Assembly (NCBI GenBank): GCA_014378615.1
Contig: JACMNI010000047.1
Location: forward strand, 9,420-73,419
Direction: 5' to 3'
DNA length: 64,000 nucleotides
Origin: Candidatus Saccharimonadota bacterium
GTDB lineage: Bacteria; Patescibacteriota; Saccharimonadia; Saccharimonadales; UBA4665
This document shows, in pieces, positions 11,003-39,195 of this stretch. The notes below the pieces were generated by a model that ran no database searches, was not told the DNA's origin, and saw only the letters and a program-made list of their open reading frames with translations. Both the position numbers and the translations under genes were made by a program. Each line of letters begins with the position of its first letter. Position 1 is the stretch's first letter.

Positions 11003-11020
11003 GGCAACCACCTTACTTAA

Positions 11021-11047: not shown

Positions 11048-11091
11048 TTCGCCAGAAAACCTGCAATATATGTATGATTTTTCATAGTGCT

Positions 11092-11100
11092 TGTGGATAA
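11092..11100 (-). promoter_or_regulatory. Perfect DnaA-box 9-mer (TGTGGATAA = reverse complement of TTATCCACA)
   Basis: Exact consensus 9-mer in the AT-rich spacer. A one-mismatch copy, TGTGGTTAA, lies at 11158-11166. Confidence 0.35.
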
Positions 11101-11518
11101 AAAACACTAAATTTTGAAACAGACGTAAGATTTACTACACACTCTATATCTTTATATTGTGGTTAAATCAGCTCAGAACAGGGTAATATAGGGTGTTTTT
11201 GGTGACTGTTGTTAATAATAATACTATTTAGGTCTAAAAAGTACATAGAAACAACAACACAACAGTACCTAAAATGTGCTCACAAAACCCTTGTTTAGCC
11301 CTAAGCGGGGGTAGATACTAGTCTCATAGGGTTGGAGCGAAGAAAAACAAACTAACCCTTGCCAACAAAAATTGGTTGAAAACCTAAAAAGCAAAAATGG
11401 GCCTTTCTCCGTAACAGAGAAAAATCCTCCGTAAGGGGAGAGGTCCAAAACAAACATTGCTCTGAAGCTACCAGCTTCTAACAGGTAAAACCAATACAAA
11501 CACCCTCACAAGAAACAA

Positions 11519-14500
11519 ATGCTAAAAAACAGATTACACCTACCGCTATTCATGAACACCCTTTGGTCCAAAACCAGCAGGGTGTTCTTTGCTGTTGTGG
11601 GTAGTGTAGTCTTGACCCCTGTAATTTTTAATACGCGCGTGTTTACGCGAGTACGCGCGGAGCTCCGCACCACTGTTCGCCGCAGCTTGATAGCTGGTTT
11701 AGGGCTGTTGGTTATAGCCAGCATGTTCGCCGCCAGCGCCAAGCCGCTCACCGCTGTCGCTGCTACCTCAGACAACCTCAACTTCCAGGCTCGCCTTGAG
11801 CAGTCAAACGGCGCCATTGCTCCTGATGGCAACTACAACATCCAGTTTAAGCTCTACAACGTCTCTTCCGGTGGTACGGCCCTCTGGACCGAGAGCTACC
11901 TCAATAGTGTTGGGCAGGGTGTTCGAGTCGTTAACGGCTACGTTACCGTCAACCTCGGATCAATCACGGCTTTCCCATCGACCATGTCATGGGATCAATC
12001 ACTGTTTGTCACCATGAACATCGGTGGCACTTCTACCGGTGCGCCGACGTACGACGGGGAAATGAACCCCCGTCTGAAGCTTACCGCCGTACCGTACGCT
12101 TTCCAGGCCAAAAGTGCCGCCCAGCTACAGGTCCAGACTGGCCCCAACGTCGGTACCTTGGCATTTGGCCCACTGACCGCGACCCGTAACATTGCCTTGC
12201 CGGACGAAAACGGGACAGTCTGTATCCAGCTGAGCACCAGTTGTGGCTTTGCCAGCGCCACCGGTAGCAATAACTACATCCAAAACAACACTACCTTGCA
12301 ATCCTCGGCTAACTTCAATTTCCAGAGCAGTTCCACCACCGCCATTAGTGGTGCGATCCGCGCCTTAACTGGTCAGACCGCCGACCTGTTACGCCTCAGC
12401 GACTCTTCGGGCGCGACCCTAAGCGGCTTTAACGCCAGTGGCCAGCTCTACTACCAGAGCGGCAGCTTTACGGGTACGTTAGTGCAAAACGTTTTGGCAC
12501 AAAACACTGTTTATCACCTGGACGACCCGGGTATTGCCAGTGTTAACATCTGTCTTAGCACCGGTAACTGTGCCGGCGCTGGCAGCGGTGTGACATCGGC
12601 AACCGGCGGCACAGTCAACTACCTCGCCAAGTTTGACGCCGTCCGCAACATCGTCAGCTCTAGCCTGTTTGATGACGGTAGCTTCGTCGGCATCAATACT
12701 ATCTCTAACGCCGGCCAACTCAGCGTCGTTAGCACTAACGCCAGCCAGAGCGGTATTTACGTAAAGGGCGCGACCAGTGCAACTAGCGCCGCCTTTGTCG
12801 TCCAGGGTGGTGCCACCCCAGCGGCTGGCGGCGATCTGATTAATCTCAAAGATGTTTCTGGCGCTATCCTCAGTGGCTTCGATGCTAGCGGAAACCTGTT
12901 CTTCAACAAGGGCGGCTTTAAGGGTACCGTTACTCAGCAGAGCTTAGCCCAAAATACTACTTATCGTTTAGTTGACCCCGCCCAGGCCAGTGTCGATATC
13001 TGTCTCAGCACCGGCAACTGTGCGGGCGCGGGTAGTAGCGTTACCTCACTTGGCGGCACGGTTAACTACCTAGCCAAGTTTGACGCCGCCCGTGACATCG
13101 CCAACTCCAACATTTACGATAACGGCAGCTTCGTGGGAGTGAATACAATCACCAATAATGGCCTGTTGAGCTTGGTCGGGGCTACGGCCGCCCAGAGTAC
13201 ATTATTTGCGCAGGGAGCCGGCAGCGCTACCTCACCAGTTGCCGTTATTCGTTCCGGAACATTGCCGGGCGCTAGCGCCGACTTGCTGGTACTTCAAGAT
13301 TCCAGTGGCGTTACGCTCGCCAAGGTCGACAACAACGGCAACTTATCGGCCGTCAGTGGATTATTTAGCGGCAACATTACCCAAAGCGGTACTGGCACGT
13401 TCAATACTGGTACCGGCGCGGTCAGCCTTAACGGCAACACACTCGTTGGCGGCACGCTAACTGTTGGCACGGCGGCAACTGCTCTCGGCGGCACGCTTAG
13501 CGTTACTGGCCCAGCAACGTTCAACGGCGGATTAACGGCTGTCGGTAGCACCCTGATTAATACGACCGGTACCGCAGCCACGGCCATCGGCAACGCTACG
13601 GGGACCTTTACACTGACGTCATCTGGCTTGAACGTCGCCGCTACCGGTGCCTTGAGCGGCGTTTCTGGCTACACTCAGACTGGCGGTAACTTTACTATCA
13701 CGGGTCCTGGCACCTTCAGCACTGGTACGGGCGCTGTTACATTAAACGGTCCTACGATCGCCACCGGTACCTTAGCGGTGCAGGGCGTAAATGGTTTAAC
13801 ACTGGGTATCGCCAGTAACACCGCCGGCGTCCTCAACTTTGCCAACATCGCCAACTCCAACCTAACTGTGCTGACGGCAACCGCGCCAACCGGCACCGGC
13901 AATGCCAACGTGAGTCTGCCAACCTTAGTCGGCGGCACCAGTGCTACTATTTGTGTCAGCACCGGTAACTGTGCCGGCGCCGGTAACAGCGTTACTTCAA
14001 ACGCCGGCGGTACTACTAATTACATCGCTAAGTTCGTTAATACCCGCGATATTGGCAACGCCAGCATCTTTGACGATGGCACTTTCGTAGGTATTAACAC
14101 CACCAGTAATAATGGTTTACTTAGCTTGGTTGGCACCGGGTCATCACAGAGTACATTGTTTGCCCAAGGTGCCAGCAGTGCTTTATCACCAGTCGCAGTC
14201 ATCCGTTCCGGCGCTACACCCGGTCCTGGCGGCGATTTATTACAACTCCAAAACAGCACAAGTACGACGGTCGCTAAGATTGATTCTAGCGGTAACCTCA
14301 CCGCAGTTGGCGGATTATTCAGCGGTAACATTTCACAAACCGGCGCTACCACGTTCAGCACTGGTTCCGGCGCTGTCAGTTTTAACGGTGCCACCAGCGT
14401 CACCGGCAGCAACGCTTTCACCGTTGGTAGCGGTAGCACCACGCTAGGCGGTACGTTAAGCGCTGGCGGTGCAACTTCACTCGGCAATACCTTAACCGTC

Positions 14501-35500: not shown

Positions 35501-38500
35501 CAGGGCTACAGCAACACCACCGGCTCTGCTAACACTACTACCGTCGCCAACACCGGTACTACCGGTGCTAACAGCGTTAACGCCATCAACCTAAGCCTGA
35601 GCGGTTCGGCCAACGGCACCGGCAGCAACACTACCACCGGCATCAACCTTGGTAACGTCGCGGCTCTATCGGGCAACGCCTTTACGGCCTTCAAGGTCGG
35701 TACTGGCTACGCCGATATCCTCAGCTACAACGGTACCAGCATCATCAACGGTTCTGGCCAGCTAAACCTCAGTCAAGTTACCAACACCCTTGGCGTTGCT
35801 AACGGGGGTACCGGCACCACCAGCCTGACCACCAACGGTATCCTGTTTGGAAATGGTACCAGCGCTATCCAAGCCACCGCCGCAGCTGCCGACAGCATCT
35901 TGGCTACCAGCGCCACTAACGTACCTGGCCTCACCCAGACGTTACCAACGGCCGTCCAGGGCAACATCGTCAAAACCGGTGCTCTAGCCCTCGGCTCGAT
36001 TGTTTCAGGCTTTGGTACCATCAACACCGGCAACACCATTACTACCAGTACTACCTTGACTGGTGGCGTCGTCAATGCCACTACTGGCTTCACCATTGGT
36101 GGCGCCGCCGCTACTGGTCAATTCCTACGCGGCAATGGCACCAACTTTGTCAGCAGCACTATTGCCGGTACCGACATTGCTGGTACTCTGTTTACCGTTG
36201 CCGGCTCAGCTGGCACCGCCCAGAACGTTGCTGGTGGAGGCACCGTATCTATCCTTAAGGGAACAAGCAACAACCTAACCACTACCGCCAGCGCCACTAA
36301 CACCCTTACTGTCGACATCATCAGCAACCCAAGCTTTAGCGGCGCTGTTACCAGCACCGCTAGTACTACCGGTTTGGTCGCCAGCGGCGCGCCAGTTGCC
36401 GGCAGCGGCATCACTTCGTTACTGCAACTTGGTGGCGCTATTGCCGCTGGCAACGTCAGCGCTAACGGCGGTACCTACTTCGGAATCAACCAGCCAGCTA
36501 CTGGCGCTGGCTCGGCCGCCGACTTCATTAACTTCCAGAACAACAATGTCGTTAAGTTGCAGGTCAGCAGCGCTGGCTTAGTCAACGCTGCTGGTGGCTT
36601 TGCCGTCGGCGCCAATACTGGCGTTTCTGCCACTTGTTCTACGGGCTTCGGCATGACCGGCAGTACGTTTACCGGCGGTATCTTGACCACTGGGACTTGT
36701 AGCCAAACAGTTGCCACTCTCCAGTCGGCCTACACTGCATCTGGTTCAACTAACCCACAGATCCTGCTCAGCTCAGCTAACGGCGGAATAAAGATCCAAG
36801 ACGGTACTACGCCAGTTACCGGCAACTTACTCCAGATTTCCAACAACGGCGGCACAACCAACTACTTTGGCGTTAGCAGCAGTGCCGTAACCGTTATTGG
36901 ATCCCTCAACGTAACCGGCGGTTACACGCAATCTGGTACCGCCAGCAACACCTTCCTCGGCGCTACAACCTTCAGCGCTGCCGGCACCGGTGCCAGCGTT
37001 ACCAACGGCTTCGCCGTCGGCACGAGCAACCAGTTTACCGTAGGTGGCACCGGTAACGTCGCTACTAGCGGTACATTTGCTCAGACCTATAGCACTGGCG
37101 CCACTGGCACCACTAACGTCAACAGTGTTAGTGCTACTAGCACCAACACCTCGGCTACCTCGGCTACGGTTAACGCCCGCAGCATAAGCTTGACGGGTAC
37201 CACTAACACTTCAGGTGGCACGCCGAATATCTTAAACGCGGTTAACCTAACCAACGTCGCGCCACTCACCGGCAACCAATTTAACGGTATCGTTATCGGT
37301 TCTGGTTACGACAACCCAATCACTATTGCCGGCAACTCAGTCTTCTCGGCTACCGGCATTATTCAGAACGGCGCCTTTGCTACCGGTACCACTTACAGCA
37401 ACATCACTAAGATTGGTACCGTTACGGCTGGTGTCTGGAACGCTTCGACAGTTACCGCCGCTTATGGTGGTACCGGTTCCAGCGCTATCCCAACTAATGG
37501 ACAGCTCTTAATCGGTAATGGTACCGGTTACACGGCCGCTAGCTTGACGACTGGTGCAGCCAGCGGCTTAACCCAGACCGCTGGTGCCGGCAGCCTCGGC
37601 TTGGCCGTCAACTTTGGTAGCGGTGCCAACCAGGTTGCCGCTGGTAACGCTAGCATCACCTGTGCTTCCGGTACTGGTAACCTAACCGGTGGTGGAACCG
37701 TTATCTCTGTCGGCGCTGGCGGCACTTGTGGCGCTATCAGTACCGTCGCTAACCCATCGTTCAACAGCCTTACTATCGCCAACACCACTAACACCAACAC
37801 CGCGCTACTCGTTCAAAACGCCAGTGGCTTCAACTCGATGACCTTCGATACCGTCAGTGGTACCCTAAAGGTCTGGGACACCAGCGTTGCTGGAACTCCA
37901 ACTAACTACGCATCAGTCAGCTACGCCAACAATACCGCCGTCTTTGCAGCTTCTAGCGGCGTTACCCAAGTCGGTGCTACTTCAGGCAACGTTACGGTTC
38001 CGCTCACCAACGCCGGCGACAACTTCCTCTACACCAAGACCAATACCGTCTCGGCCGCCTACAGCACTAGCGAATTCACTATCCAACGCGTGGTAACTGG
38101 TGGCGCCAATGCCCTTACCGGCCAAGTCTTAAAGGTCGAAAACCGCTCAACCGGAACCAACGACTCTGCCGCCGTTCTCTACGTAAACCAAAACAACACC
38201 AGCGCGACTGGTAACGTGGTTCAGGTTCAGTCTGGTGCAACTACCAACTTGTTAACCCTCGATACCGCCGGTAACTTAAACGTCAAGAACGGCTACCAGG
38301 TTAACGGTGTAGCTGGAACTAACTTGACCTGTACCGCAGGCGCCGGTCTCACTAACGCGGTTATCGCCGGCGGTATCGTTACCAGTGGTACATGTTCTGG
38401 TGGTACCGGTACACTCCAGACCTCTTACGCCAACGACACCAATACCAATGCGCAGATCCTCACTACTTCTGCTTCTAAGGGTATCCTTTTCAAGGCTGGT

Positions 38501-39193
38501 ACCGGCTTCGATCAGATAGGACTCTTCAAGGTTCAGAACGCCGCCGGTAACAATATGTTTAGCATCGATTCTAGTAACTCCCGCGTCATCGTCGGTACCG
38601 GCGCAACTGGCGGTACAGCGCCAACCACATTGGTACTCGATAACAAGACTTCAGTTGGTGACCCAACTGGTGTCAGCGGCGCCATGTACTTCAACAGCGC
38701 CACCGGCTCATTCCGTTGTTACCAAAATGCTGCTTGGCAGAGTTGTGGTCCGCAAACAGCCAAGGCAACTGCCGATACGCCGAACAGCACCACGACCGCT
38801 ACCAACATATCAGGCCTAAGTTTCACTCTGGCAGCTAACACCGACTACTCATTCAAGTGTACGCTTATCTACCAGGCCGCTGCGACTACAACCGGTATCC
38901 GATTTGGTTTAACCGGTCCAACCGCTCCGACTGCTGTAGCAGCTACGGCTTCCATCTGGAACACTACTGCTGCAACGGCTGCGCCAACATCTGTAGCTTA
39001 CAATGCCTATACAACGACCCTAACTCTTGGAACGACTAGCGTAGCCGCAGCGGCCGCCAATTATCCGGTAACAATGGACGGTGTAATCCGTAACGGTACA
39101 ACTGGAGGCGCGTTCGCATTGCAGTTTGCATCATCTGTTGCAGCCGCCTCAACCGTAAAGGCCGGCAGCTCTTGCCAGTTAACCCAGCTATAA
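11519..39193 (+). CDS. Giant (9,224 aa) secreted or N-terminally anchored beta-strand-repeat fibre protein, putative adhesin; no characterised family recognised
   Basis: Single ORF of 27,675 nt with no in-frame stop. It has an N-terminal signal-like segment and a T/G/S/A/N-rich, charge-poor repetitive core with conserved junction modules. The C-terminal region is distinct and non-repetitive. Coding status is high confidence; function is unknown. Confidence 0.9.
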   Translation: MLKNRLHLPLFMNTLWSKTSRVFFAVVGSVVLTPVIFNTRVFTRVRAELRTTVRRSLIAGLGLLVIASMFAASAKPLTAVAATSDNLNFQARLEQSNGAIAPDGNYNIQFKLYNVSSGGTALWTESYLNSVGQGVRVVNGYVTVNLGSITAFPSTMSWDQSLFVTMNIGGTSTGAPTYDGEMNPRLKLTAVPYAFQAKSAAQLQVQTGPNVGTLAFGPLTATRNIALPDENGTVCIQLSTSCGFASATGSNNYIQNNTTLQSSANFNFQSSSTTAISGAIRALTGQTADLLRLSDSSGATLSGFNASGQLYYQSGSFTGTLVQNVLAQNTVYHLDDPGIASVNICLSTGNCAGAGSGVTSATGGTVNYLAKFDAVRNIVSSSLFDDGSFVGINTISNAGQLSVVSTNASQSGIYVKGATSATSAAFVVQGGATPAAGGDLINLKDVSGAILSGFDASGNLFFNKGGFKGTVTQQSLAQNTTYRLVDPAQASVDICLSTGNCAGAGSSVTSLGGTVNYLAKFDAARDIANSNIYDNGSFVGVNTITNNGLLSLVGATAAQSTLFAQGAGSATSPVAVIRSGTLPGASADLLVLQDSSGVTLAKVDNNGNLSAVSGLFSGNITQSGTGTFNTGTGAVSLNGNTLVGGTLTVGTAATALGGTLSVTGPATFNGGLTAVGSTLINTTGTAATAIGNATGTFTLTSSGLNVAATGALSGVSGYTQTGGNFTITGPGTFSTGTGAVTLNGPTIATGTLAVQGVNGLTLGIASNTAGVLNFANIANSNLTVLTATAPTGTGNANVSLPTLVGGTSATICVSTGNCAGAGNSVTSNAGGTTNYIAKFVNTRDIGNASIFDDGTFVGINTTSNNGLLSLVGTGSSQSTLFAQGASSALSPVAVIRSGATPGPGGDLLQLQNSTSTTVAKIDSSGNLTAVGGLFSGNISQTGATTFSTGSGAVSFNGATSVTGSNAFTVGSGSTTLGGTLSAGGATSLGNTLTVTGASTFNNNVSVTGSGTLSVANGATTLGGSLAVSGVTALNSTLAVSGATTLTGLLTANGGIVDTGNFSQTGAGTFSTGSGAVTLNGDTAINGTKTFTVGTGATSLGGTLGVTGTSSFTGAATFNGGITDNGNFTQAGAGTFSTGSGAVSLNGNTAITGTSTLTVGTGATILGGTLGVTGLTTLSGGTTISGTTSITGATTINTTGSANTSIGNATGSFSLASSALNVTSGGALSGITTISMTGAIAAATSGNTINGLIINNGALSGITGYAQASGNFAISGAGSFGTGTGAVSLNGATSVTGSNALIVGTGATTLGGTLGVAGLTTLNGGVTVIGATNINTTGTAATNIGNTGAAFTLASSGLNVTSAGAVSGVTGYDQTSGNFAQAGTGSFSTGSGIVSLNGNTTITGTKTLTVGSGATLLGGSLTVNGASTLNGGATISNGATISGGLTATGATAINTTGTANTAIGNTTGSFSLQSSALNVSASGAISGVTGYDQTSGNFAQAGGGTFSTASGAVSLNGNTSIIGTSTLTVSTGATALGGTLAVSGLTTLSGGATVTGATSITGATAINTTGTANTAIGNTTGSFSLQSSALNVSGTGAISGVTTLNLSGAIAGATSGNTINGLVINSGALSSVTGYSQTSGNFSQTGTGTFGTGTGSVNLNGVTSVTGSNAFNVGTGATTLSGTLAVTGSTTLTGLLTTNGGITDTGNFLQSGAGTFSTGTGAVSLNGATTISTTLAVQGAGGITVGTPSGTNGKISFANNLNSNLGIIQIGTPSGTGNATYTVPTIAGGSSDTFCLLTNNNCNFETTNGTDFVRNQTTQQTSGNFNIQARPATVAAVIQGASGQDIINLVNSAGATVAKIDANGNVTAVNAVFSGTVTQTGNGTFSTGTGAISLNGSTSVTGTNTLTVGTGATTLGGTLAVTGAATFNGGVSVSGTNTLTVGTGATTLGGTLAVTGLSTFTGAATFNGDITGTANISQTGNGSFSTATGAVNLNGATSVSGSNTFTVGTGATALGGSLGVTGLTTLNGGATVLGATNINTSGTANTSIGNSTGNFSLQSAGLNVSSAGALTGITTVNMSGAITAATTGNTINGLIINGGSLSGVTGYNQSSGNFTQSGTGSFNTATGAVSLNGPTTVTGTNAFTVGTGATTLGGSLGVTGATTFTGALTANGTSTFNANVGITGASTLTVGTGATVLGGTLGVTGLSTFTGAATFNGGITDTGNFTQTGTGTFSTGTGAVSLNGVTTANASFNVSGTNTLTVGTGATSLGGTLAVTGTSTLTGLLTANGGITDTGNFSQTGTGTFSTGTGAVSLNGATAVTGTNTLTVGTGATTLGGNLTVSGAAAFNGNVTINGTNNLTVTSGATSLGGTLAVTGATTLSGGLAVTGASSFSGNVSLSGLSTFTTGTGTVTLGSLGDGIVQSNAAGVLSSGTVDRNGAYLTGTTSVTNGGTGTATFTSGGILYGNGTSPIQSTISAANSILITGSGSIPTLSQTLPVAVQGNITNTGALNAGSIVSGFGSITTANNISTSAIVQGGTVTATGALNGNSLSINSGAFAVNAAGAIIAATGITTSGNITQSGTGSFSTGTGAVSLNGATSVSGSNTFSVGSGATTLGGSLGVTGGTTLGSTLGVTGAATFASAASVQGAAGLTIGSTTNNGLLTLLDGTTDGFTASIALGGVLSANQSYVLPTVGGTFCLNTNNCNYQTAGSYELTTGTDFVRNQTTLQTVANFNISGTGIASVFQAASFDTNTAATLSLGGTNATAINVAKSGVTTTIAGALSVAQASTFNGNVSVSGSNTLTVATGATSLGGSLGVTGATSLSNSLTVAGATTIGGNTSITGASTLTVGTGATSLGGSLSTAGTSTFTGASTFNGGITDAGNFSQTGTGTFSTGTGAVSLNGNTSISGTNTLTVGTGTTTLGGSLGVAGLTTLSGGATITGATSIIGATTINTTGTASTTIGNAAAAFSVASNGLNITSAGALSGVTGYAQSSGNFLQSGAGSFDTATGAVSLNGATSVTGSNAFTVGTGATNLGGALTATGLATLNGGLTVTGTTAINNGGTASTSIGNSTGTFSVQSSALNISTSGALSGISGYTQTSGNFSQAGVGTFSTASGNVALNGATTISGTNNFTVNSGAASLGGTLAVAGASTLSGNVSVTGASTLSVGTGATSLGGTLSVAGATTINGNTSITGASTLTVGTGATTLGGTLAVTGAATLSSTLAVAGGSTFTGASTFNGGITDTGNFAQTGTGSFSTGTGTVTLNGNTTISGTNTLTVGSGATTLGGSLGVTGLTTLNGGVTVTGATSITGATSINTTGTANTAIGNGTGSFSVLSSGLNVTAAGALSGVTGYSQTSGNFLQSGTGTFGTGTGVVSLNGATSVTGANAFSVGTGATSLGGTLGVTGTSGFTGAATFNGGITDTGNFTQTGTGSFSTGTGAVSLNGATNITGANAFTVGTGATTLGGVLSVSGTSTLNGNTSVTGINTFTVGTGATALGGTLVVTGATTLNSTLGVAGVTTLSGNTSITGTSTLTVGTGATTLGGTLAVSGAAALSGTLAVTGATTLSSTLSVGGTSTFTGAATFNGGITDTGNFAQTGTGSFSTGTGAVSLNGNTSITGANTLTVGTGAVTLGGTLGVTGLTTLSGGATVTGATSITGAATINTTGTASTAIGNGTGSFSVASNALNITSSGAISGATTIGLSGAISGATSGNTINGLVINAGALSGVTGYSQTSGNFAQTGTGTFATGTGAVSLNGNTSVLGANTFTVGTGATNLGGVLGVTGATSLGSTLGVTGVATFASSASVQGAAGLTLGSTTNNGLLKLLDGTADGFNASISLGGVLGSNQAYSLPTTGGTFCLSTNNCNYQAPGDYELTTGTDFVRNQTTLQTTANFNISGTGIASVFQAGSFDTNTVAVLSLGATNATALTVAKSGVTTTVAGALTVTQASTFNGNVSIAGANTLTVGTGATTLGGTLGVTGAASIGSTLAVTGATTLSSTLAVTGAATLSSTLGVTGLATLNGGATVNGTTSITGATNVNTSGTAATAIGNATGNFSVASNALNITSTGAISGVTTLGLSGAISGATSGNTINGLVINSGSLSGITGYAQSSGNFAQAGTGTFSTGTGGVSLNGATSVTGSNAFNVGTGASTLGGTLTVAGLGTFNSGLTVATGNTFTNASSTLLSAIAIGNHLSGGPIGTAATTVDVATTFDITQIVPGQNLSLPTPTNAVSGRIAFVNSAATNVTFTMHGTTVNPGTSVNFIWNGSAWINPSASSSGVTSVGAVDSQTKSANGAVINGTNIYLQTADASSIGLVSTSAQTLAGAKTFNNLLTASAGVTASGGAISLTGNAASSFSTTAGALSLTSAAAATWSTASGNLTLQAGSGTVSLGTSNNLTAGGALSITSGGATTLSIDAGGAASLNLGGTNATAVNIARTGVATAVNGSLTVAQAATFNGSVSVTGTNNFSVGTGTTTLSGVLNVSGAATLSSTLAVQGAGGLTLGVASTTDGQLKFANSTNANQSVVNAFAPSGTGDATYTLPTLPGGTSAYICLNTGNCAGAGGAITGSGTNNYVARFNSNSTINASGLLYDDNTFVGVNTTSYSATLAVLGAAAAKPAFLAQATASATTPVAVIKGGATPGAGGDLLQLQNSAGTILAKFDATGNLSAVNGTFSGNFAQTGSGSFSTGTGAVSLNGATTANANFSVSGTNTLTVGTGATTLGGTLAVTGSSSFTGASTFTGAATFNGGITDTGTFSQTGTGSFSTGTGAVSFNGATTANANFSVSGTNTLTVGTGATTLGGTLAVTGLTTLTGLLTTNGGITDTGNFSQTGTGTFGTGTGAVSLNGATTANANFSVSGTNTLTVGTGATTLGGTLAVSAAATLNGTLTVTGQATFNSDIAAAANFAQTGTGTFSTGTGAVSLNGATTISTTLNVQGAGGVTIGVAGTTAGVLKFANATNANQTLLQALAPTGTGTATLNIPSVAGGSTDEICLKFSGNCVGSGGGVTSTGGNQNYVTKFTNAGGTQIGNASIYDDGSFVGINTLSNNGAFSVQGISATQTTLFAQATASATTPVAVIKGGATPGVGGDLLQLQNSAGSVLARVDASGNLSAVNGNFTGAFSQTGTGTFGTGTGAVSLNGNTSITGTNTLTVGSGASILGGTLGVTGLTTLSGGATIAGATSITGATTINTTGTASTTIGNSGAAFSVASNGLNITSAGALSGVSGYSQTSGNFTQTGTGTFSTGTGAVSLNGNTSISGSNTLTIGTGATALGGTLSVTGATSLASTLGVSGIATFANSANVQGAAGLALGSTTNNGLLKFLDGTADGFSASIALSAPLTSNQSYVLPSTGGTFCLNSNNCNYQAAGSYELTTGTDFIRNQTTLQTVANFNIQSASASSTTANILGAAGQTVDIFTVGTNGTPSIFRVTNTGRAVDTLGISLGAFATNATGTVLGAQATSSTSVAADIRQFSSGQTSNLLNFSDNSGTPLTSFNASGNLVYRQNGTISAGQIGSNSTGYNLGISAGQGGATNNNGGTLSLDGGAASGTGTRGAVAIQASGGATTIGGALGVSGAISGATTGNTINGLIVNGGAISGITGYSQASGNFSQTGAGSFDTGTGTVSLNGATVVTGTNTLTVGTGATTLGGTLTVGTGTVTLGSLGTGLVQSSATGVLSSGAVDRNSTNFFNTALTVANGGTGATTLTAKGVLYGNGTGAVLATSSVAGAVLITDPTTSIPSLSQTLPTAVQANITSTGVLTAGSIASGFGTISTTNNITTTAAVQGGTLSIGSGAFAVNVTGAITAATGITTSGNFLQTGAGTFGTGTGAVSLNGATNISSTLAVQGAGGITVGVAGTTAGVITFANATNTNKTLVNALAPTGSGDATVNIPSVAAGVTDQFCLKITGNCGGGGTGVTVTGGVQNYLAKFNSATGTQIGSASLYDDGNFVGLGTTSNNGLLSIVSASATQAAIFAQGAASATTPVAVIKGGATPGAGADLLQLQTSAGTIVAKISASGNLSVLDGNFSGNVAQTGSGSFSTGTGAVSLNGNTSITGTNTLTVGTGATALGGSLGVTGLTSLNGGATIAGATSITGATTINTTGTANTAIGNATGSFSVTSNALNISSVGAISGVSGYSQTSGNFAQTGTGTFSTGTGAVSLNGNTSITGANTLTVGTGATTLGGSLGVTGAATFSSTLNVGTSATTLGGTLTVAGATTFNGAVSISGTNALTVGTGTVTLGSLGTGLVQSSATGVLSSGSVDRNNASFFNTALSVANGGTGINTLAANGVLYGNGSGAIQATAAAANSILATNGTSVPGLTQTLPTAVQGNITSTGILAAGSIASGFGTIVTANNITTTAAVQGGTVTATGVLSGNSLSINAGAFAVSSTGAITAATGITTSGNFSQTGTGSFGTGTGAVSLNGATIVTTGNNFNVTNGTSNFGGAVNVQSAAGLTLGVASTTTGKLTFANSTTANLATLQIAAPTGTGTAAYTLPSIAGGTSDEICVKLAGNCAGSVSATGGQANYVARFTNASTLGIGQLFDNGSFVGVNTNTNSGQLSILSSGTTQAAIFAQGATSATTPVAVIKGGATPGIGGDLLQLQTSAGSVVAKIDASGNFSGAGGNFSGAVSISGTSTLTVSTGAVTLGSLGAGLVQSSSAGVLSSGAVDRNSASFFNTALTVTNGGTGAGTFTTNGLVFGNGTGALQVTAAAANSILATNGTNVPGLTQTLPTAVQGNITSTGALAAGSIATGFGVISTANNITTTAALQGATVTATGVLSGNSFSINAGAFAVSSTGAITAATGITTTGNFSQTGAGTHSTGTGAVSLNGATSITGTNTLTVGSGATALGGTLSVAGATTFNGAVSVSGTNNFTTGIGSVTLGSLAAGVVQSNASGLLSSSAIDRNSATLLTNTLSIANGGTGATTFATNGILYGNGATNIQATASAANSILATNGTSVPALTQTLPANVQGNITTTGALSAGSIASGFGVISTANNITTTATIQGGTVNATGVLSGNSLSINAGAFAVSSTGAITAATGITTSGNLSQTGTGSFNTGTGAVSLNGTTTVTTGNNFNVTNGTSNFGGAVNVQSAAGLTLGTASTTTGKLTFANAGSASLAVIQVGAITGATGTGTYNVPGIASGATDEFCLRYSSNCGGVTATGGTQNYVAKFTNSSTLGIGQLFDNGSFVGVNTTTNSGQLSILSSGAAQAAIFAQGAASATSPVAVIKGGASPGIGGDLLQLQNSAGTVVAKVDASGNLSAVNVNVSGAFAQTGTGSFSTGTGAVSINGATTIAAATTINGTNPLTVGTGTVTLGSLGVGLVKSDIIGVLSSGTVDRNSASYFNTTLSVANGGTGATTLASNGILFGNGTGALQATTSLAGAVLVTDATTSIPSLSQTLPVAVQGNITKTGALAAGSIATGFGVINTASSITTSVALQGATVNATGVLSGNSLSINAGAFAVSSAGAITAATGITTSGNLSQTGTGSFSTGTGAVSLNGATTVSSTLAVQGAAGLTLGVAGTTAGTLNFANTSNTNVGSLQIAAPSGTGTGSYSIPSIAGGTSDFICVKLINNCASVTASGGTANYVARFTGANALGIGTLYDNGSFAGVNTATNSGTLSILSSGATSAAVFAQGAASATTPVAIIKGGATPGAGGDLVQFQTSAGASVAKIDASGNILGASFDTVGAGVLNIGTTNATSIALKQNTTVTGTLSVSNGLSVTAGASSFAGAVSLTNGNNLTVGTGATSLGGTLAVTGTGTYTGLQTFNGGVTVANNSAFAQTGTGTFSTGTGAISLNGATTIGSTLNVSGGTVTVGSTGQFTIGTNGNVATSGSVLGASFDVNAAGALSLGTTNANSIALMKNTSVTGTLAFSVLGAAGSTQVCQNASNQLSSCSVTYEATTGTDFVRNQTAQQTGANFNIQARASSVAATIQGATGQDIANFVSSGGATVAKIDASGNLTAVQGTFSGAVNANGGVFLGANQNLSLATGTGIITQGYSNTTGSANTTTVANTGTTGANSVNAINLSLSGSANGTGSNTTTGINLGNVAALSGNAFTAFKVGTGYADILSYNGTSIINGSGQLNLSQVTNTLGVANGGTGTTSLTTNGILFGNGTSAIQATAAAADSILATSATNVPGLTQTLPTAVQGNIVKTGALALGSIVSGFGTINTGNTITTSTTLTGGVVNATTGFTIGGAAATGQFLRGNGTNFVSSTIAGTDIAGTLFTVAGSAGTAQNVAGGGTVSILKGTSNNLTTTASATNTLTVDIISNPSFSGAVTSTASTTGLVASGAPVAGSGITSLLQLGGAIAAGNVSANGGTYFGINQPATGAGSAADFINFQNNNVVKLQVSSAGLVNAAGGFAVGANTGVSATCSTGFGMTGSTFTGGILTTGTCSQTVATLQSAYTASGSTNPQILLSSANGGIKIQDGTTPVTGNLLQISNNGGTTNYFGVSSSAVTVIGSLNVTGGYTQSGTASNTFLGATTFSAAGTGASVTNGFAVGTSNQFTVGGTGNVATSGTFAQTYSTGATGTTNVNSVSATSTNTSATSATVNARSISLTGTTNTSGGTPNILNAVNLTNVAPLTGNQFNGIVIGSGYDNPITIAGNSVFSATGIIQNGAFATGTTYSNITKIGTVTAGVWNASTVTAAYGGTGSSAIPTNGQLLIGNGTGYTAASLTTGAASGLTQTAGAGSLGLAVNFGSGANQVAAGNASITCASGTGNLTGGGTVISVGAGGTCGAISTVANPSFNSLTIANTTNTNTALLVQNASGFNSMTFDTVSGTLKVWDTSVAGTPTNYASVSYANNTAVFAASSGVTQVGATSGNVTVPLTNAGDNFLYTKTNTVSAAYSTSEFTIQRVVTGGANALTGQVLKVENRSTGTNDSAAVLYVNQNNTSATGNVVQVQSGATTNLLTLDTAGNLNVKNGYQVNGVAGTNLTCTAGAGLTNAVIAGGIVTSGTCSGGTGTLQTSYANDTNTNAQILTTSASKGILFKAGTGFDQIGLFKVQNAAGNNMFSIDSSNSRVIVGTGATGGTAPTTLVLDNKTSVGDPTGVSGAMYFNSATGSFRCYQNAAWQSCGPQTAKATADTPNSTTTATNISGLSFTLAANTDYSFKCTLIYQAAATTTGIRFGLTGPTAPTAVAATASIWNTTAATAAPTSVAYNAYTTTLTLGTTSVAAAAANYPVTMDGVIRNGTTGGAFALQFASSVAAASTVKAGSSCQLTQL
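11678..11740 (+). other. Sec-type signal-peptide-like segment of the giant protein
   Basis: RRSLIAGLGLLVIASMFAASA followed by KP: basic n-region, hydrophobic core, A-x-A site. It is preceded by a second hydrophobic stretch, VFFAVVGSVVLTPVIF (aa 22-37). Confidence 0.5.
11768..12120 (+). other. N-terminal non-repetitive beta-rich domain of the giant protein
   Basis: SDNLNFQARLEQSNGAIAPDGNYNIQFKLYNVSSGGTALWTESY...MNPRLKLTAVPYAFQAKSA. This is an NFQ-G/A-RL ... PYA pattern that I recall from the N-termini of other large bacterial surface proteins. That is recollection, not a search result. Confidence 0.5.
12551..12898 (+). repeat. Junction module type A, copy 1 (C-x5-C knot ... NY-AKF ... DDGSFVGINT ... 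GDL-L-S-G ... ASGNL)
   Basis: ICLSTGNCAGAG, with Cys codons at 12551 and 12569; ends at DASGNL. Confidence 0.85.
13001..13347 (+). repeat. Junction module type A, copy 2
   Basis: ICLSTGNCAGAG, with Cys codons at 13001 and 13019; same motif order as copy 1. Confidence 0.85.
13952..14302 (+). repeat. Junction module type A, copy 3
   Basis: ICVSTGNCAGAG, with Cys codons at 13952 and 13970; ...GGDLLQLQNSTSTTVAKIDSSGNL. Confidence 0.85.
15857..15956 (+). repeat. Perfect 100-nt intragenic direct repeat, copy 1
   Basis: ACCGGCGCCACCGCCATCAACACTACCGGC...CCCTTAATGTCAGCG is identical base for base to 16196-16295 (offset 339 nt = 113 codons). Confidence 0.95.
16196..16295 (+). repeat. Perfect 100-nt intragenic direct repeat, copy 2
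   Basis: Identical to 15857-15956. A further 51-nt identical pair lies at about 15613-15663 and 15970-16021. Confidence 0.95.
16895..17117 (+). repeat. Junction module type B, copy 1 (FCL-TNNC ... GTDFVRNQTT-QT-NFNI)
   Basis: FCLLTNNNCNFETTNGTDFVRNQTTQQTSGNFNIQARPATVAAVIQGASGQDIINLVNSAGATVAKIDANGN. Confidence 0.85.
18745..19255 (+). repeat. Junction module type C, copy 1 (TLGSLG-G-VQS--GVLSSG-VDRN ... NGGTG ... QTLP-AVQGNIT ... GAFAV)
   Basis: VDRN codons at 18815-18826. About 170 aa, with the same motif order as copies 2-6. Confidence 0.85.
19604..19723 (+). repeat. Junction module type B, copy 2
   Basis: FCLNTNNCNYQTAGSYELTTGTDFVRNQTTLQTVANFNIS. Confidence 0.9.
23090..23209 (+). repeat. 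Junction module type B, copy 3
   Basis: FCLSTNNCNYQAPGDYELTTGTDFVRNQTTLQTTANFNIS. Confidence 0.9.
25172..25519 (+). repeat. Junction module type A, copy 4
   Basis: ICLNTGNCAGAG, with Cys codons at 25172 and 25190. Confidence 0.85.
25586..25698 (+). repeat. 113-nt intragenic direct repeat, copy 1 (perfect match to copy 3)
   Basis: GGCGCAGTTTCACTAAACGGCGCCACTACTGCC...GGTGGCACACTAGCTGT is identical to 26036-26148 (offset 450 nt). Confidence 0.95.
25820..25932 (+). repeat. 113-nt intragenic direct repeat, diverged middle copy
   Basis: Same unit with a handful of substitutions (for example GTTAGCTTC for GTTTCACTA). The three copies are spaced 234 and 216 nt apart. Confidence 0.9.
26036..26148 (+). 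repeat. 113-nt intragenic direct repeat, copy 3
   Basis: Identical to 25586-25698. Confidence 0.95.
26492..26848 (+). repeat. Junction module type A, copy 5
   Basis: ICLKFSGNCVGSGG (C-x6-C), with Cys codons at 26492 and 26513. Confidence 0.85.
27575..27694 (+). repeat. Junction module type B, copy 4
   Basis: FCLNSNNCNYQAAGSYELTTGTDFIRNQTTLQTVANFNIQ. Confidence 0.9.
28480..28965 (+). repeat. Junction module type C, copy 2
   Basis: VDRN codons at 28550-28561. Confidence 0.85.
29213..29569 (+). repeat. Junction module type A, copy 6
   Basis: FCLKITGNCGGGG, with Cys codons at 29213 and 29234. Confidence 0.85.
30215..30720 (+). repeat. Junction module type C, copy 3
   Basis: VDRN codons at 30287-30298. 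Confidence 0.85.
31025..31366 (+). repeat. Junction module type A, copy 7
   Basis: ICVKLAGNCAGS, with Cys codons at 31025 and 31046. Confidence 0.85.
31432..31945 (+). repeat. Junction module type C, copy 4
   Basis: VDRN codons at 31508-31519. Confidence 0.85.
32141..32655 (+). repeat. Junction module type C, copy 5
   Basis: IDRN codons at 32216-32227. Confidence 0.85.
32957..33295 (+). repeat. Junction module type A, copy 8
   Basis: FCLRYSSNCGG, with Cys codons at 32957 and 32978. By eye, the DNA is roughly 85-90 percent identical to copy 7 over about 31090-31240. Confidence 0.85.
33444..33960 (+). repeat. Junction module type C, copy 6
   Basis: VDRN codons at 33518-33529. Confidence 0.85.
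34214..34551 (+). repeat. Junction module type A, copy 9
   Basis: ICVKLINNCAS, with Cys codons at 34214 and 34235. Confidence 0.85.
35162..35398 (+). repeat. Junction module type B, copy 5 (variant Cys spacing)
   Basis: VCQNASNQLSSCSVTYEATTGTDFVRNQTAQQTGANFNIQARASSVAATIQGATGQDIANFVSSGGATVAKIDASGN, which parallels copy 1. Confidence 0.85.
35760..36130 (+). repeat. Junction module type C, diverged copy 7
   Basis: LGVANGGTGTTSLTTNGILFGNGTSAIQATAAAADSILATSATNVPGLTQTLPTAVQGNIVKTGALALGSIVSGFG. Confidence 0.75.
36635..36930 (+). other. C-terminal region, Cys-bracketed module copy 1 (C-x20-C then TLQSAY...)
   Basis: TCSTGFGMTGSTFTGGILTTGTCSQTVATLQSAYTASGSTNPQILLSSANGGIKIQDG...LLQISNNGG, with Cys codons at 36635 and 36698. 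Confidence 0.75.
38330..38625 (+). other. C-terminal region, Cys-bracketed module copy 2
   Basis: TCTAGAGLTNAVIAGGIVTSGTCSGGTGTLQTSYANDTNTNAQILTTSASKGILFKAG...LFKVQNAAG, with Cys codons at 38330 and 38393. It is collinear with copy 1. Confidence 0.75.
38760..39190 (+). other. Terminal non-repetitive beta-sandwich-like tip domain of the giant protein
   Basis: ATADTPNSTTTATNISGLSFTLAANTDYSFKCTLIYQ...VTMDGVIRNGTTGGAFALQFASSVAAASTVKAGSSCQLTQL. Cys codons at 38858 and 39173 bracket about 105 aa. It is preceded by the C-x8-C motif FRCYQNAAWQSCG (38717, 38744). Confidence 0.6.
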
Positions 39194-39195
39194 CA

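Follow-up and report, generated by a model that had tools for sequence, protein, structure and literature searches.

The giant ORF at positions 11519 to 39193 of the 64-kb stretch of DNA analysed here (the window) is best read, with a probability of roughly 60%, as a genuine Saccharimonadales gene for a secreted, phage-tail-fibre-like surface fibre of 872 kDa per chain, the longest of a lineage-specific family. We infer that this fibre lies at the cell surface, is probably trimeric and N-terminally anchored, and probably binds a ligand on the host. Signal cleavage, the geometry of the shaft and a role in host attachment are proposed on the same footing. A fibrous surface role had already been suggested in the initial annotation and is kept as the best reading, and the predicted tip now provides a concrete candidate for how Saccharibacteria may reach and recognise host cells.

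The giant ORF, its locus and its family

The ORF lies on the forward strand, starts with ATG and comprises 9,224 codons and a stop, exactly as initially annotated. Its precursor has a mass of 871.7 kDa, a predicted pI of 4.9 and a composition that bears out the earlier description, with T (18.6%), G (17.2%), A (12.9%), S (11.2%) and N (8.3%) making up 68% of the residues and D, E, K and R together about 3%. There are no in-frame stops inside the ORF and no N letters in the window. Base composition predicts about 300 stops in such a frame (log10 P of no stop about -133), and each of the remaining five frames is interrupted by between 155 and 1,142 stops.

Several features of the data could nevertheless point to an assembly artefact, or to a decaying pseudogene open by compositional accident. 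The gene is rich in repeats and was assembled from metagenomic data, the region of residues ~2,560–7,780 (~5,200 codons) derives from a single assembly, and the exact protein is absent from a collection of 15 billion proteins in which the proteins of its neighbours are present. However, the repeat copies share only 60–83% DNA identity and are therefore old and diverged, and the two longest exact repeats measure 113 and 100 nt, a combination that makes repeat collapse or chimeric assembly unlikely; all repeat spacings are multiples of three and thus in frame. Two other species carry collinear orthologues, one on JARXKN010000010.1 (first 2,298 aa of the giant, 85% identity) and one on JBBRLU010000009.1 (first 2,558 aa, 80% identity), the collinearity in both stretching to the contig end. 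The dN/dS ratios between the giant and these orthologues are 0.073 and 0.099 at a dS of about 1.4, which, together with the stop statistics, argues against a frame that is open by chance. A chimera or frameshifts had been raised as grounds for doubt. At the 3' end these find no support in a second assembly, as Logan contig SRR9661224_369946 matches window positions 34867–43167 at 99.94% (5 SNPs, no indel) and spans the last 1,441 codons and the genes downstream, whereas the middle rests on one assembly as stated. The reading as artefact or pseudogene is thus already largely refuted and hardly credible, and by these sequence criteria the ORF is a genuine, selectively constrained gene. We estimate that it takes up some 2–4% of the genome, assuming a typical genome size of ~0.7–1.2 Mb, and the strong purifying selection argues that this investment is functional.

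Nearly all homologues and syntenic loci carry the label Saccharibacteria or Saccharimonadales, which identifies the source, by sequence affinity, as a Saccharimonadales (Patescibacteria/CPR) bacterium of a reduced-genome episymbiont lineage, in agreement with the lifestyle deduced earlier. The window also contains a gene of the LCP family, as would suit an envelope of the Gram-positive type, and relatives of the organism are of the monoderm type (PMC11665869). On the forward strand after rplU, an intrinsic-terminator-like hairpin with a T-run (11019 to 11052; 11-pair stem, 6 G-C pairs) is followed by ~470 nt of AT-rich intergenic DNA before the giant ORF, an arrangement that suggests a promoter of its own; three weak sigma-70-like sites lie at 11049–11275, as consensus matches only. 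All flanking ORFs with a Pfam match have housekeeping or envelope-maintenance functions, consistent with the core-gene neighbours (ileS, rplU; parAB) named before, and six flanking ORFs, including both immediately downstream of the giant, have no match of any kind. Directly downstream, on the opposite strand, a small gene (39196 to 39792) encodes a membrane-anchored protein for which no homologue was found in any fetched locus (E ≤ 1e-10). Genes for an anchoring partner, a glycosyltransferase, a sortase or a dedicated secretion system were not found in the 64-kb window, so that the reported lack of adjacent T1SS, T5SS and sortase genes holds.

The position of the gene is conserved. Among 79 fetched loci, 47 of 86 N-domain ORFs directly follow ileS/rplU; RNR and ftsZ lie further upstream in most of these slot loci, and in several the family gene is followed by parA-parB-S26-LCP, the order also seen in the window. 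Closed genes in the rplU slot encode 670–3,615 aa, and in a complete relative other large genes adjoining the slot carry Pfam Beta_helix/NosD domains.

The giant is not the orphan that the initial annotation implied, since it has 6,441 relatives at E ≤ 1e-3, of which 545 also match at E ≤ 1e-30. The family is represented in 443 stretches from species-representative genomes and in every Saccharimonadales locus examined. The survey of orthologues and lengths advised earlier yielded the collinear orthologues and slot lengths above as well as other giants of 5,628–6,916 aa. Judged from sequence, the protein is, among those met in this analysis, the longest of a large, previously undescribed, lineage-specific family with a common layout of leader and signal peptide, N-domain, modular beta-repeat shaft with paired cysteines, neck and exchangeable head. 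The 14 best-matching relatives all break off where the retrieved sequence stops, which for the two closest is the contig end; such genes break short-read assemblies, and the true length range of the family is therefore under-sampled. Some relatives carry the JGI auto-annotation 'trimeric autotransporter adhesin'. Peptidase_S74 (PF13884), an intramolecular chaperone of trimeric fibres, occurs in the paralogues P0180, P0194, P0210 and P0230, which share the N-domain and neck, and is absent from the giant itself (Pfam, 960-aa tiles, E ≤ 10). Searches of 50,697 phage genomes and 2.9 million viral contigs with the last 1,125 aa of the giant, its neck motif and its N-terminal region found no sequence relatives, which makes any relation to tail fibres mostly a structural one.

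Layout of the protein

An extended leader of the form RVFFAV-x-TPVIFNTR (residues 21–40; 11579 to 11638, forward strand) with basic flanks precedes the signal peptide. The motif occupies the same position in P0001, P0002, P0006, P0235, P0237, P0238, P0248 and others, recurs even in family members of only 40–50% overall identity, and may well have a function of its own. The signal peptide (11678 to 11761, forward strand) consists of a basic n-region, the h-region LIAGLGLLVIASMFAASA and AxA sites, with ASA/K after residue 74 and AVA/A after residue 81. While the signal-like character of the N-terminus is upheld, the cut at ASA/K proposed earlier is not: an AxA motif right before the N-domain recurs throughout the family, and AVA/A is the likelier signal-peptidase site. 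A hydrophobicity scan of the whole protein found two hydrophobic segments only, both within the first 75 residues, in keeping with the earlier report of no LPXTG or transmembrane anchor at the C-terminus.

Right after the signal peptide comes the N-domain (residues ~83–200; 11765 to 12118, forward strand), a predicted beta-sandwich that serves as the family signature. It follows the pattern NFQARL...FKLY...LWTE...NGY..V.LG..FP...W.Q...MN.GG...DGEM.PRL.LTAVPYAF, is 45–90% identical in more than 140 proteins and is present in 443 stretches of GTDB genomes. AlphaFold2 modelled residues ~86–185 with a pLDDT of ~87–95. The fold has no significant PDB match (best Ig/macroglobulin-like, E 0.2), and profile searches against PDB sequences gave none. 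We propose that the N-domain is an envelope-attachment module that could anchor the protein.

The shaft is modular throughout. Its proximal part (residues 231–900; 12209 to 14218, forward strand) comprises four short disulfide-loop modules with cysteine pairs 235/242, 345/351, 495/501 and 812/818 and the motifs NY(L/I)AKF, YIQN..Q..ANFN and DLL(Q/R)L, and is collinear with many shorter family members. The core shaft (residues 901–4200; 14219 to 24118, forward strand), of which 1.4% is charged and 73% is T, G, S, A or N, contains arrays of ~33-aa repeats built from ~12-aa sub-units with a regular aliphatic pattern (LxVxGxxxxLxx) as well as GNFxQxGxGxFxTxxGxVxLNG units, and is broken by Cys-loop modules at 1794, 2697 and 3859. 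For this region AlphaFold2 gave short beta strands only, at low confidence (pLDDT 45–68; model mean 56), so that the model does not establish either a trimer or a solenoid. Larger supermodules make up the distal shaft (residues 4201–7800; 24119 to 34918, forward strand), with eight Cys-loop modules and ANGGTG modules; its ~640-aa units were duplicated fairly recently, residues 6301–6599 and 6944–7242 being 82% identical. A divergent distal region (residues 7801–9002; 34919 to 38524, forward strand) carries a GGTG...GQLLIGNG module and three disulfide loops of 21–22 residues (8373/8394, 8715/8737, 8938/8959).

Taken in order, the 40 cysteines of the giant form 20 consecutive pairs, 19 of them spaced 6–22 residues apart, a pattern that favours an extracellular location; NxS/T sequons number 257 against 225 ± 11 expected. 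Searches of Pfam and NCBIfam with the protein yielded nothing significant, and PDB sequences gave no match; no Pfam family passes the default threshold, and 960-aa tiles at E ≤ 10 gave none of the adhesin or fibre domains sought. Its one sequence match to described families is a weak one, of phrog_31660 ('tail fiber protein') to ~100 aa at residues ~8624–8725 (E 2.8e-6).

The neck (residues 9003–9076; 38525 to 38746, forward strand) is conserved in the family, ends in the cysteine pair 9067/9076 and follows the pattern F.VQN...F.(V/I)D..N.R(V/I).(V/I)G...LLVLD.K...GDPTG..GAMY(Y/F)N....FRCY.N..W..C. It is found in dozens of members, typically ~100–300 aa from the C-terminus with a few copies further in, and was modelled with a pLDDT of 67–88. 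Across the family, differing C-terminal domains follow this conserved neck.

In the giant that domain is a head (residues 9077–9224; 38747 to 39190, forward strand; C-terminus ...VKAGSSCQLTQL) predicted by AlphaFold2 and Foldseek to be a TNF/C1q-like jelly roll, with a pLDDT mostly of 75–92 that dips to ~56–67 at residues ~9140–9170. The same head domain ends P0362, P0306, P0228, P0286, P0324 and P0321 (971–1,959 aa). Foldseek matched the predicted head in the PDB to the BC2L-C N-terminal lectin (2wq4, 6zzw; probability 1.0, TM 0.54–0.65) and further to the PLTL TNF-like lectin (9ib6, 9ib7), 4-1BBL and Pgp3; for the TNF-like lectins and 4-1BBL as a group, probabilities were 0.9–1.0, TM scores 0.35–0.65 and E values marginal at ~1e-3. 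Pfam C1q and TNF gave no sequence match in the head. With neck and head together as query, a viral structure library gave 120 matches at E ≤ 1e-3, led by phage tail-fibre, lambda Stf-repeat, collagen-repeat and C1q-domain proteins (E 7e-11). The initial annotation had found no characterised family to assign, a view that the predicted tip, which resembles the heads of phage tail fibres, and the weak PHROG match now amend. TNF/C1q folds are trimeric. We propose from the model that the head is a distal tip that could both bind a ligand and trimerise. A TNF/C1q-class predicted head in the giant and Peptidase_S74 in paralogues with the same N-domain and neck are each a hint of trimers in this family.

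Alternative readings and implications

In the proposed mechanism, the precursor would be exported by Sec, with a family-specific leader (RVFFAV...TPVIFYTR) before the signal peptide and a cut just before the N-domain, whose beta-sandwich would fasten the fibre to the cell envelope at its base. Some 8,800 residues of beta repeats, uncharged and rich in T, G, S, A and N, would then form a long rigid shaft punctuated by ~19 small disulfide loops, probably a homotrimer as in tail fibres. At the distal end the neck and the TNF/C1q-like head would initiate trimerisation and bind a surface ligand of the host or partner bacterium, for which a glycan is the most plausible candidate. Gain or loss of repeat modules could alter reach, and a swap of heads specificity. 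From general fibre dimensions, we take the length to be ~0.1–0.2 micrometre for a single-chain solenoid and ~0.35–0.7 micrometre for a trimeric fibre, which would presumably equal or exceed the cell diameter. The single-chain beta-helix geometry behind an earlier estimate of 0.2 micrometre is not established, and a trimeric fibre would be longer.

A protein at the same location could instead have a single-chain beta-solenoid shaft of the FHA/TpsA or pertactin type and a monomeric or loosely associated lectin head. The ~33-aa repeats with three LxV-type sub-units suit a three-sided solenoid, large genes by the slot of the complete relative encode Beta_helix/NosD domains, and the giant has no S74 chaperone of its own. 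We nevertheless consider this unlikely, though deserving of attention, given that the predicted head falls in a fold class whose characterised members are trimeric, that the structures it matches best are the trimeric tips of phage fibres, that paralogues carry S74, and that AlphaFold2 gave no confident solenoid for the monomer. Rather improbable, in our judgement, is a surface coat in place of an adhesin, meaning a dense hair-like nap or spacer comparable to BclA filaments or an S-layer accessory. Such a coat would determine the properties of the surface, shut out phages or predators, or hold the host at a distance. The extremely uncharged, Thr/Ser-rich shaft could be glycosylated, as the sequon excess might suggest, the layout logic is that of BclA with the head fold predicted, and a family member occupies this housekeeping position in every Saccharimonadales locus examined. 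Exchangeable heads behind a conserved neck, with folds like those of lectins and tail-fibre tips, are however what would be expected of specific recognition rather than of a generic coat, and coat and adhesin roles are not mutually exclusive.

The conserved junction followed by variable C-terminal domains also resembles CdiA/Rhs logic, and the small gene without assigned function immediately downstream (39196–39792) could be taken for an immunity gene, as in a polymorphic-toxin or contact-dependent delivery filament whose neck would be a pre-toxin junction before a variable effector. That is very improbable: the prediction for the C-terminal domain is a lectin or tail-fibre head of jelly-roll fold and not an enzyme, the small gene runs in the opposite direction, encodes a membrane-anchored protein and lacks homologues in the fetched loci at E ≤ 1e-10, and TPS, VENN, PT-HINT and Rhs gave no Pfam match. 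We thus retain the tail-fibre-like surface fibre as the preferred reading.

The wider question is how ultrasmall episymbiotic Patescibacteria find, recognise and hold specific host bacteria, for which type IV pili, a few 'adhesins' from Tn-seq and the new Pam pili have been implicated so far (PMC10633639, PMC12206443, PMC11665869, bioRxiv 10.64898/2026.03.03.709456). Our analysis defines a large unnamed family that keeps one place on the chromosome and is organised like the receptor-binding fibres of phages, with a conserved base, a shaft that can be extended and a lectin-like head that can be exchanged, and leads to testable hypotheses in which the head sets host range, shaft length sets reach, and the leader and N-domain are a route of export and anchoring. 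Both the neck with head (220 aa) and the N-domain (120 aa) are of a size suited to recombinant work. We raise, as a tentative and somewhat doubtful generalisation, that Saccharibacteria and perhaps other CPR may use domesticated or convergent tail-fibre-like proteins as host-range determinants, as phages do. If so, the N-terminal module and the new extended leader would be a lineage-specific route of export and anchoring, heads would be swapped for specificity and shafts lengthened by module duplication for reach, and the giant would be a 2.6-MDa trimeric fibre of ~0.4–0.7 micrometre, exceeding the length of its own cell. To our knowledge, a 9,224-aa fibre would then be the largest tail-fibre-like protein described.

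Comparison with known systems

Within the same lineage, type IV pili and Pam donor-strand-exchange pili presumably serve the same end, to reach the host and bind it (PMC10633639, PMC12206443, bioRxiv 10.64898/2026.03.03.709456). These are polymers of small pilins, whereas the giant is a single polypeptide, and its locus after rplU differs from the pam/ATP-synthase neighbourhood of Pam pili. The Pam paper mentions an uncharacterised 'tail fibre-like protein' near pam operons (bioRxiv 10.64898/2026.03.03.709456).

Giant bacterial genes typically encode surface proteins (PMC11573180), and in Apilactobacillus kunkeei such genes (Giant1-5) make up a large share of a small genome (PMC12863079), as the giant would here. 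By analogy with giant adhesins (YadA, BadA, RTX, FHA/TpsA, Ebh/Embp and serine-rich repeat proteins), the protein would likewise be a long repetitive fibre with a distal binding module, but it shows the defining secretion or anchor features of none of the classes that we tried. A trimeric autotransporter adhesin was rejected (no YadA anchor and no Hep_Hag, HIM or neck Pfam match, with a predicted soluble jelly roll as C-terminus); with its attachment module N-terminal and its head C-terminal, the giant would have the opposite orientation. An LPXTG or serine-rich-repeat adhesin was rejected for want of a C-terminal LPXTG or hydrophobic segment and of an SRR/KxYKxGKxW signal, two internal LPxTG strings being part of a repeat motif. 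Zero GGxGxD matches, which agrees with the absence of RTX nonapeptides noted initially, and no T1SS genes in the window spoke against an RTX adhesin. Two-partner secretion (FHA/TpsA) was rejected on the lack of a TPS Pfam match and the monoderm-type relatives (PMC11665869); the earlier observation of no autotransporter-barrel or TPS hallmark likewise stands, with no Pfam match in the giant.

BclA-type exosporium filaments and other collagen-like proteins with C1q/TNF heads would be analogous in layout. BclA has an N-terminal attachment region, a low-complexity shaft whose variable length sets that of the filament, and a C-terminal TNF/C1q-like domain. Unlike BclA, the giant has a shaft of beta repeats, is ~20-fold larger and comes from an organism that is no spore former. 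Membership among collagen-like proteins (BclA/Scl) was rejected, as 9,224 aa contain one 15-aa run of five GXY triplets. The fold of the predicted head is matched by the TNF-like lectins BC2L-C (N-terminal domain, Burkholderia cenocepacia) and PLTL (Photorhabdus), trimeric glycan binders that suggest glycan recognition by the head. Those lectins, in contrast to it, are small soluble proteins and not fibre tips, and share with it no detectable sequence similarity (10–16% identity in structural alignments).

A likeness is also seen to the long and side tail fibres of phages (such as lambda Stf, T4 gp34-37 and T5 pb1), which have a modular beta-rich shaft as the giant does. PHROG 31660 tail fibres share its GGTG...GxLLxGNG module, and fibre tips, including the collagen-repeat and C1q-headed fibres of uncultured Caudovirales, match its predicted neck and head (E 7e-11). 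Tail fibres also combine a conserved base with an exchangeable distal head, as in the giant's family, and their S74 chaperone occurs in its paralogues. Unlike them, the giant has no S74 and, for its distal 1,125 aa, neck and N-terminal region, no sequence relatives among the phage genomes and viral contigs searched, carries a Sec signal peptide and leader, and is chromosomal, in a conserved housekeeping slot where no flanking gene with a match is phage-derived. A place within a phage or prophage structural module was rejected because those flanking genes are all housekeeping and the phage and viral searches gave no relatives. In length, the giant is some 7–9 times T4 gp34 or gp37.

Integrity of the 27.7-kb reading frame

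The ORF listing of the window returned a single frame at 11519..39193 on the forward strand, opening with ATG and encoding a precursor of 9,224 aa (871.7 kDa). Translation gave 0 internal stops, and the window contains no N. The base composition predicts about 300 stops over 9,224 codons (log10 P of finding none about -133), and the five other frames over the same DNA carry 155-1,142 stops each, so the uninterrupted ORF described in the initial annotation was confirmed. Its product is composed of T (18.6%), G (17.2%), A (12.9%), S (11.2%), and N (8.3%), with D, E, K, and R together making up about 3%.

We evaluated whether this frame could be an assembly chimera or carry frameshifts, as the initial annotation had cautioned. 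The repeat copies within the gene are 45-82% identical at the protein level and 60-83% at the DNA level, are always spaced by a multiple of three, and appear from this divergence to be old. The two longest exact DNA repeats are 113 and 100 nt; with exact repeats this short and copies this diverged, a repeat collapse or chimeric join is unlikely. A scan of relatives using one genome per GTDB species identified two close orthologues, both truncated by contig ends, that are collinear with the giant with indels nearly absent: L004 (JARXKN010000010.1) over residues 1-2,298 at 85% identity and L003 (JBBRLU010000009.1) over residues 1-2,558 at 80%. In a codon-level comparison, dN/dS against L004 and L003 was 0.073 and 0.099 (dS about 1.4), and just as low within the "low-complexity" repeats. 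A second assembly, the 8,301-bp Logan contig L084 from SRR9661224, matched window positions 34867-43167 at 99.94%, differing by five SNPs and free of indels, and so reproduces the final 1,441 codons together with the genes downstream. Three of the SNPs fall inside the giant gene, one of them nonsynonymous. Residues ~2,560-7,780 are represented only in the assembly from which the window is taken. The open frame, collinear orthologues, low dN/dS, and second assembly together largely refute an artefact or pseudogene.

Gene neighborhood and a conserved slot

The giant gene is preceded by ftsZ, nrdR, a class II ribonucleotide reductase gene, ileS, and rplU, and followed by two genes without known function, parA, parB, and genes for an S26 signal peptidase and an LCP-family protein. 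Beyond these lie HtrA, prmC, prfA, rpsB, tsf, frr, and RseP, and further along the window proS-like and lysS/aspS-like synthetases, greA, and msrA. Homologues of the giant and of its neighbors come almost entirely from Saccharibacteria or Saccharimonadales, which supports the earlier guess of a reduced-genome episymbiont. NCBI holds exact copies of the neighboring proteins (window 2053-43434), numbered MBC7708269.1 to MBC7708278.1 and encoded on a contig of 108.6 kb, under both "Candidatus Saccharibacteria bacterium" and "Polaromonas sp."; this contig looks like a Saccharibacterial one mis-binned into a Polaromonas MAG. The exact sequence of the giant was absent from a collection of 15 billion proteins, and the accession numbering of its neighbors leaves space for it.

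A strong terminator-like hairpin (11019-11052) lies 3' of rplU and is followed by about 470 nt of AT-rich spacer before the giant gene. An Rfam scan of the window found no family at gathering threshold and no tRNA, and a search by E-value threshold found nothing credible in the 5' intergenic region of the giant. Just upstream of ileS (7684), positions 7480-7626 (+) matched the T-box leader over the full model length at 33 bits (E 2e-5; Rfam gathering 93), and this element is probably a divergent T-box regulating isoleucyl-tRNA synthetase. At the window start, a minus-strand frame of at least 588 aa (2-1765), PriA-like by the look of its sequence, extends past the edge, which is why no long ORF was listed in the first 2 kb. 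Immediately 3' of the giant gene lie genes for a single-pass membrane protein of 198 aa, encoded on the opposite strand (39196-39792), and for a signal-anchored 737-aa protein (39837-42050, +) rich in T, S, and A and lacking a Pfam match. Weak homologues of the latter were found at two related loci only, downstream of the fibre gene in L079 and upstream of ileS in L010. Neither gene is a conserved partner of the fibre gene.

Annotation databases offered little for the giant itself. Searches of two halves of 4,600-4,700 aa against Pfam and NCBIfam gave nothing significant, against PHROGs one marginal match (E 0.004) to a family without known function, and ten 960-aa tiles against Pfam at E<=10 gave noise only. 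Neither phmmer searches with the N-terminus, C-terminus, and a mid module nor profile searches with two family alignments (A1 and A3) found anything significant among PDB sequences. By these comparisons, the giant protein belongs to no named family. Nevertheless, the earlier reading had to be corrected: when its first 1,200 aa were searched exhaustively with HMMER, 6,441 proteins were returned at E<=1e-3 (545 at E<=1e-30), placing the giant in a large conserved family. Among the 150 best relatives, none equals it in length. Other giants of the family reach 6,916, 6,741, 6,660, 5,864, and 5,628 aa and resemble it in composition and in having paired cysteines; the first two homology searches had not shown them because the search, run three times, returned only proteins of ~0.55-1.75 times the query length, so that short queries cannot reveal giant relatives. 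A JGI metagenome scan with the C-terminal tile identified distant relatives only (<=56% identity).

The pattern for the conserved N-terminal domain (N-domain, residues ~83-200) occurred in 443 stretches of species-representative genomes. Within 79 fetched loci, 47 of the 86 ORFs bearing this domain lie directly after ileS-rplU, most with the ribonucleotide reductase gene and ftsZ further upstream, and several are followed, as in the window, by parA-parB-S26-LCP. The survey of related genomes thus recovered orthologues of varied length: fully read genes in this slot encode 670-3,615 aa, a range limited by the 10-kb flank, and many others run off contig ends. The conserved slot and these lengths make the giant gene a positional orthologue, expanded tenfold, of a conserved gene for a surface protein. 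At locus L001 of a complete Saccharibacterial genome of 1.21 Mb (CP064993.1, 633551-654885), a cluster of genes for large surface proteins sits just upstream of parA-parB-S26-LCP; its products include a Beta_helix protein of 2,238 aa, a Kelch-repeat protein of 1,887 aa, an N-domain protein of 444 aa, and two NosD/Beta_helix proteins. This suggests a general surface-protein island immediately ahead of parAB.

Several observations touch on the wider family. The MAG "bin06" holds two different ileS-rplU-fibre loci, L004 and L005 (JARXKN010000009.1), with fibres 85% and 53% identical to the giant, and for this reason probably mixes two Saccharibacterial populations; in L005 the fibre frame stays open up to the end of the contig, over at least 4,093 aa. 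Seven distant relatives of 1,700-4,300 aa from other CPR lineages (P0158, P0159, P0177, P0189, P0205, P0221, and P0232) have precomputed Pfam hits to MerR/HTH_17/excisionase-type DNA-binding domains, about half of them also to Peptidase_S74. P0205 has an HTH-like start in place of a signal peptide, an odd combination for a fibre protein.

Architecture from leader to head

Hydrophobic segments are confined to residues 1-81, which comprise a basic N-terminus, a hydrophobic motif (RVFFAV...TPVIFNTR, residues 21-40), a very basic linker, and a classical h-region with AxA sites. The motif, RVFFAV-x-TPV(I/F)FYTR across the family (window 11579-11638), keeps its position in many members that are only 40-50% identical elsewhere, which makes it a conserved signal-peptide extension. 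Other large secreted proteins bear ESPR or YSIRK extensions that it may resemble, by analogy only, and it may act as a lineage-specific signal for sorting or for pacing export. The N-domain that follows is 45-90% identical across well over a hundred proteins and was modeled by AlphaFold2 as a confident beta-sandwich (pLDDT ~87-95). The fold search of the PDB, run with the model of the first 1,200 aa that includes this domain, found no significant neighbor, the best being Ig/macroglobulin-like (E 0.2); as this model is mostly of low confidence, we drew no conclusion from it on the fold of the shaft.

The shaft (residues ~231-9,002) consists of beta-repeat arrays between cysteine-loop modules. 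The 40 cysteines of the protein fall, in order, into 20 consecutive pairs, with 17 pairs 6-10 residues apart, three pairs 21-22 apart, and one (9114/9219) spanning 105 residues within the head. By these pairs, about 19 small loop modules can be recognised, and they are of three kinds. Between the modules lie arrays of ~33-aa repeats (consensus VTGTNTLTVGTGATTLGGTLGVTGATTLNG...) in which aliphatic residues follow a regular LxVxGxxxxLxx pattern of about 12 residues. A GNFxQxGxGxFxTxxGxVxLNG unit occurs in 33 copies and ANGGTG modules in six, and charged residues make up only 1.4% of residues 901-4,200. A supermodule of ~640 aa is duplicated, with copies 82% identical, a level that points to a fairly recent event. 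AlphaFold2 modeled the shaft as short beta strands at low confidence.

The neck (residues 9,003-9,076) carries the motif GDPTG..GAMY(Y/F)N....FRCY.N..W..C, which in dozens of family members typically lies ~100-300 aa from the C-terminus, with a few copies further in. The domains that follow it differ among members; the C-terminal head of the giant (residues 9,077-9,224) also terminates P0362, P0306, P0228, and other proteins of 971-1,959 aa. We modeled residues 8,860-9,224 from a 33-sequence alignment, obtaining a mean pLDDT of 71, with the neck and head mostly at 75-92 and a dip to ~56-67 at residues ~9,140-9,170. The predicted head matched TNF-like jelly rolls in the PDB, foremost the N-terminal lectin of BC2L-C (probability 1.0, TM 0.54-0.65), followed by the Photorhabdus TNF-like lectin PLTL, 4-1BBL, and chlamydial Pgp3 (E-values ~1e-3). 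For the predicted tip, at least, a fold can be assigned, which amends the earlier reading. Characterised members of the TNF/C1q fold are trimers.

Against predicted viral structures, the distal model gave 120 matches at E<=1e-3, led at E 7e-11 by tail-fibre proteins, a lambda Stf repeat protein, and Caudovirales proteins with collagen repeats or C1q domains. In sequence, a single module (residues ~8,624-8,725) matched PHROG 31660, "tail fiber protein" (E 2.8e-6). Searches for viral sequence relatives found nothing, whether 50,697 phage genomes were queried by tblastn with the last 1,125 aa or 2.9 million viral contigs with two degenerate neck-motif patterns and with N-domain patterns from the alignment of the first 1,200 aa. 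This argues that the family is cellular, its likeness to tail fibres appearing, on the models, mainly structural. Peptidase_S74, the intramolecular chaperone of trimeric phage fibres, is present in paralogues with the same N-domain and neck and absent from the giant. In P0180, P0194, P0210, and P0230 the S74 motif lies ~200 aa upstream of the neck and not at the extreme C-terminus, and P0230 has three such stretches. Self-cleavage as in phage fibres, if true, would release the neck and terminal domain of those paralogues.

Proposed mechanism and comparison with known systems

We infer the following mechanism. The precursor would be exported by Sec and cleaved before the N-domain, which, as the one module common to proteins with very different distal parts, would tether the fibre to the envelope. 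Small disulfide loops would stiffen the uncharged beta-repeat shaft, which would project the neck and head from the cell. The TNF/C1q-like head would nucleate trimerisation and bind a ligand, probably a glycan, on the surface of a host or partner cell. Comparable fibres, such as those of T4 and BadA, extend ~0.05-0.08 nm per residue, and by this analogy a trimeric giant fibre would be ~0.4-0.7 micrometre long. The surface-fibre reading of the initial annotation is thus supported in outline, with its unassigned family and tip amended.

The three-part 33-aa repeat would also fit a monomeric solenoid adhesin, a single chain reaching ~0.12-0.13 micrometre at ~33-36 residues per 0.48-nm rung; the 0.2 micrometre estimated initially falls between the two lengths. 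We disfavor the monomer because the predicted head is of a trimer type and matches the tips of trimeric phage fibres. The uncharged, Thr/Ser-rich shaft would suit a non-specific coat or hair-like nap of the BclA type, but the exchangeable lectin-like heads argue for specific recognition, with which a coat could coexist. A polymorphic-toxin filament is disfavored by a predicted head that is a jelly roll and no enzyme fold, and by a downstream gene that is on the opposite strand and not a conserved neighbor. DGR targeting was rejected, since no reverse transcriptase gene lies in the window and the head lacks a C-type lectin fold. The initial finding of no well-described adhesin family also stands: the giant fails the defining tests of trimeric autotransporter adhesins, LPXTG/serine-rich repeat adhesins, RTX adhesins, TpsA, and collagen-like proteins, and sortase anchoring and a T1SS or T5SS substrate were likewise rejected.

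Giant bacterial genes classically encode surface proteins or NRPS/PKS and are enriched in host-associated lineages, some CPR groups included (PMC11573180; bioRxiv 10.1101/2023.11.21.568195). In Saccharibacteria, host interaction has been attributed to type IV pili, a few essential "adhesins" with VCBS, dockerin, or FnIII domains, and the Pam donor-strand-exchange pili (PMC10633639; PMC12206443; PMC11665869; bioRxiv 10.64898/2026.03.03.709456), and an uncharacterised "tail fibre-like protein" was reported near pam operons (bioRxiv 10.64898/2026.03.03.709456). The literature searched held no description of this family, its leader, N-domain, or conserved locus, and the supplements of the Southlakia Tn-seq paper held no "tail fiber", "endosialidase", or "C1q" annotation. 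We regard the giant as a fibrous surface protein of undescribed architecture in a poorly understood lineage. A giant adhesin-like gene alone is unsurprising; a family, a fixed locus, and a phage-like modular logic together make Saccharibacterial host recognition directly testable. In its working, the giant would be most like a phage tail fibre, with a BclA-type filament bearing a lectin-like head as the alternative closest likeness.
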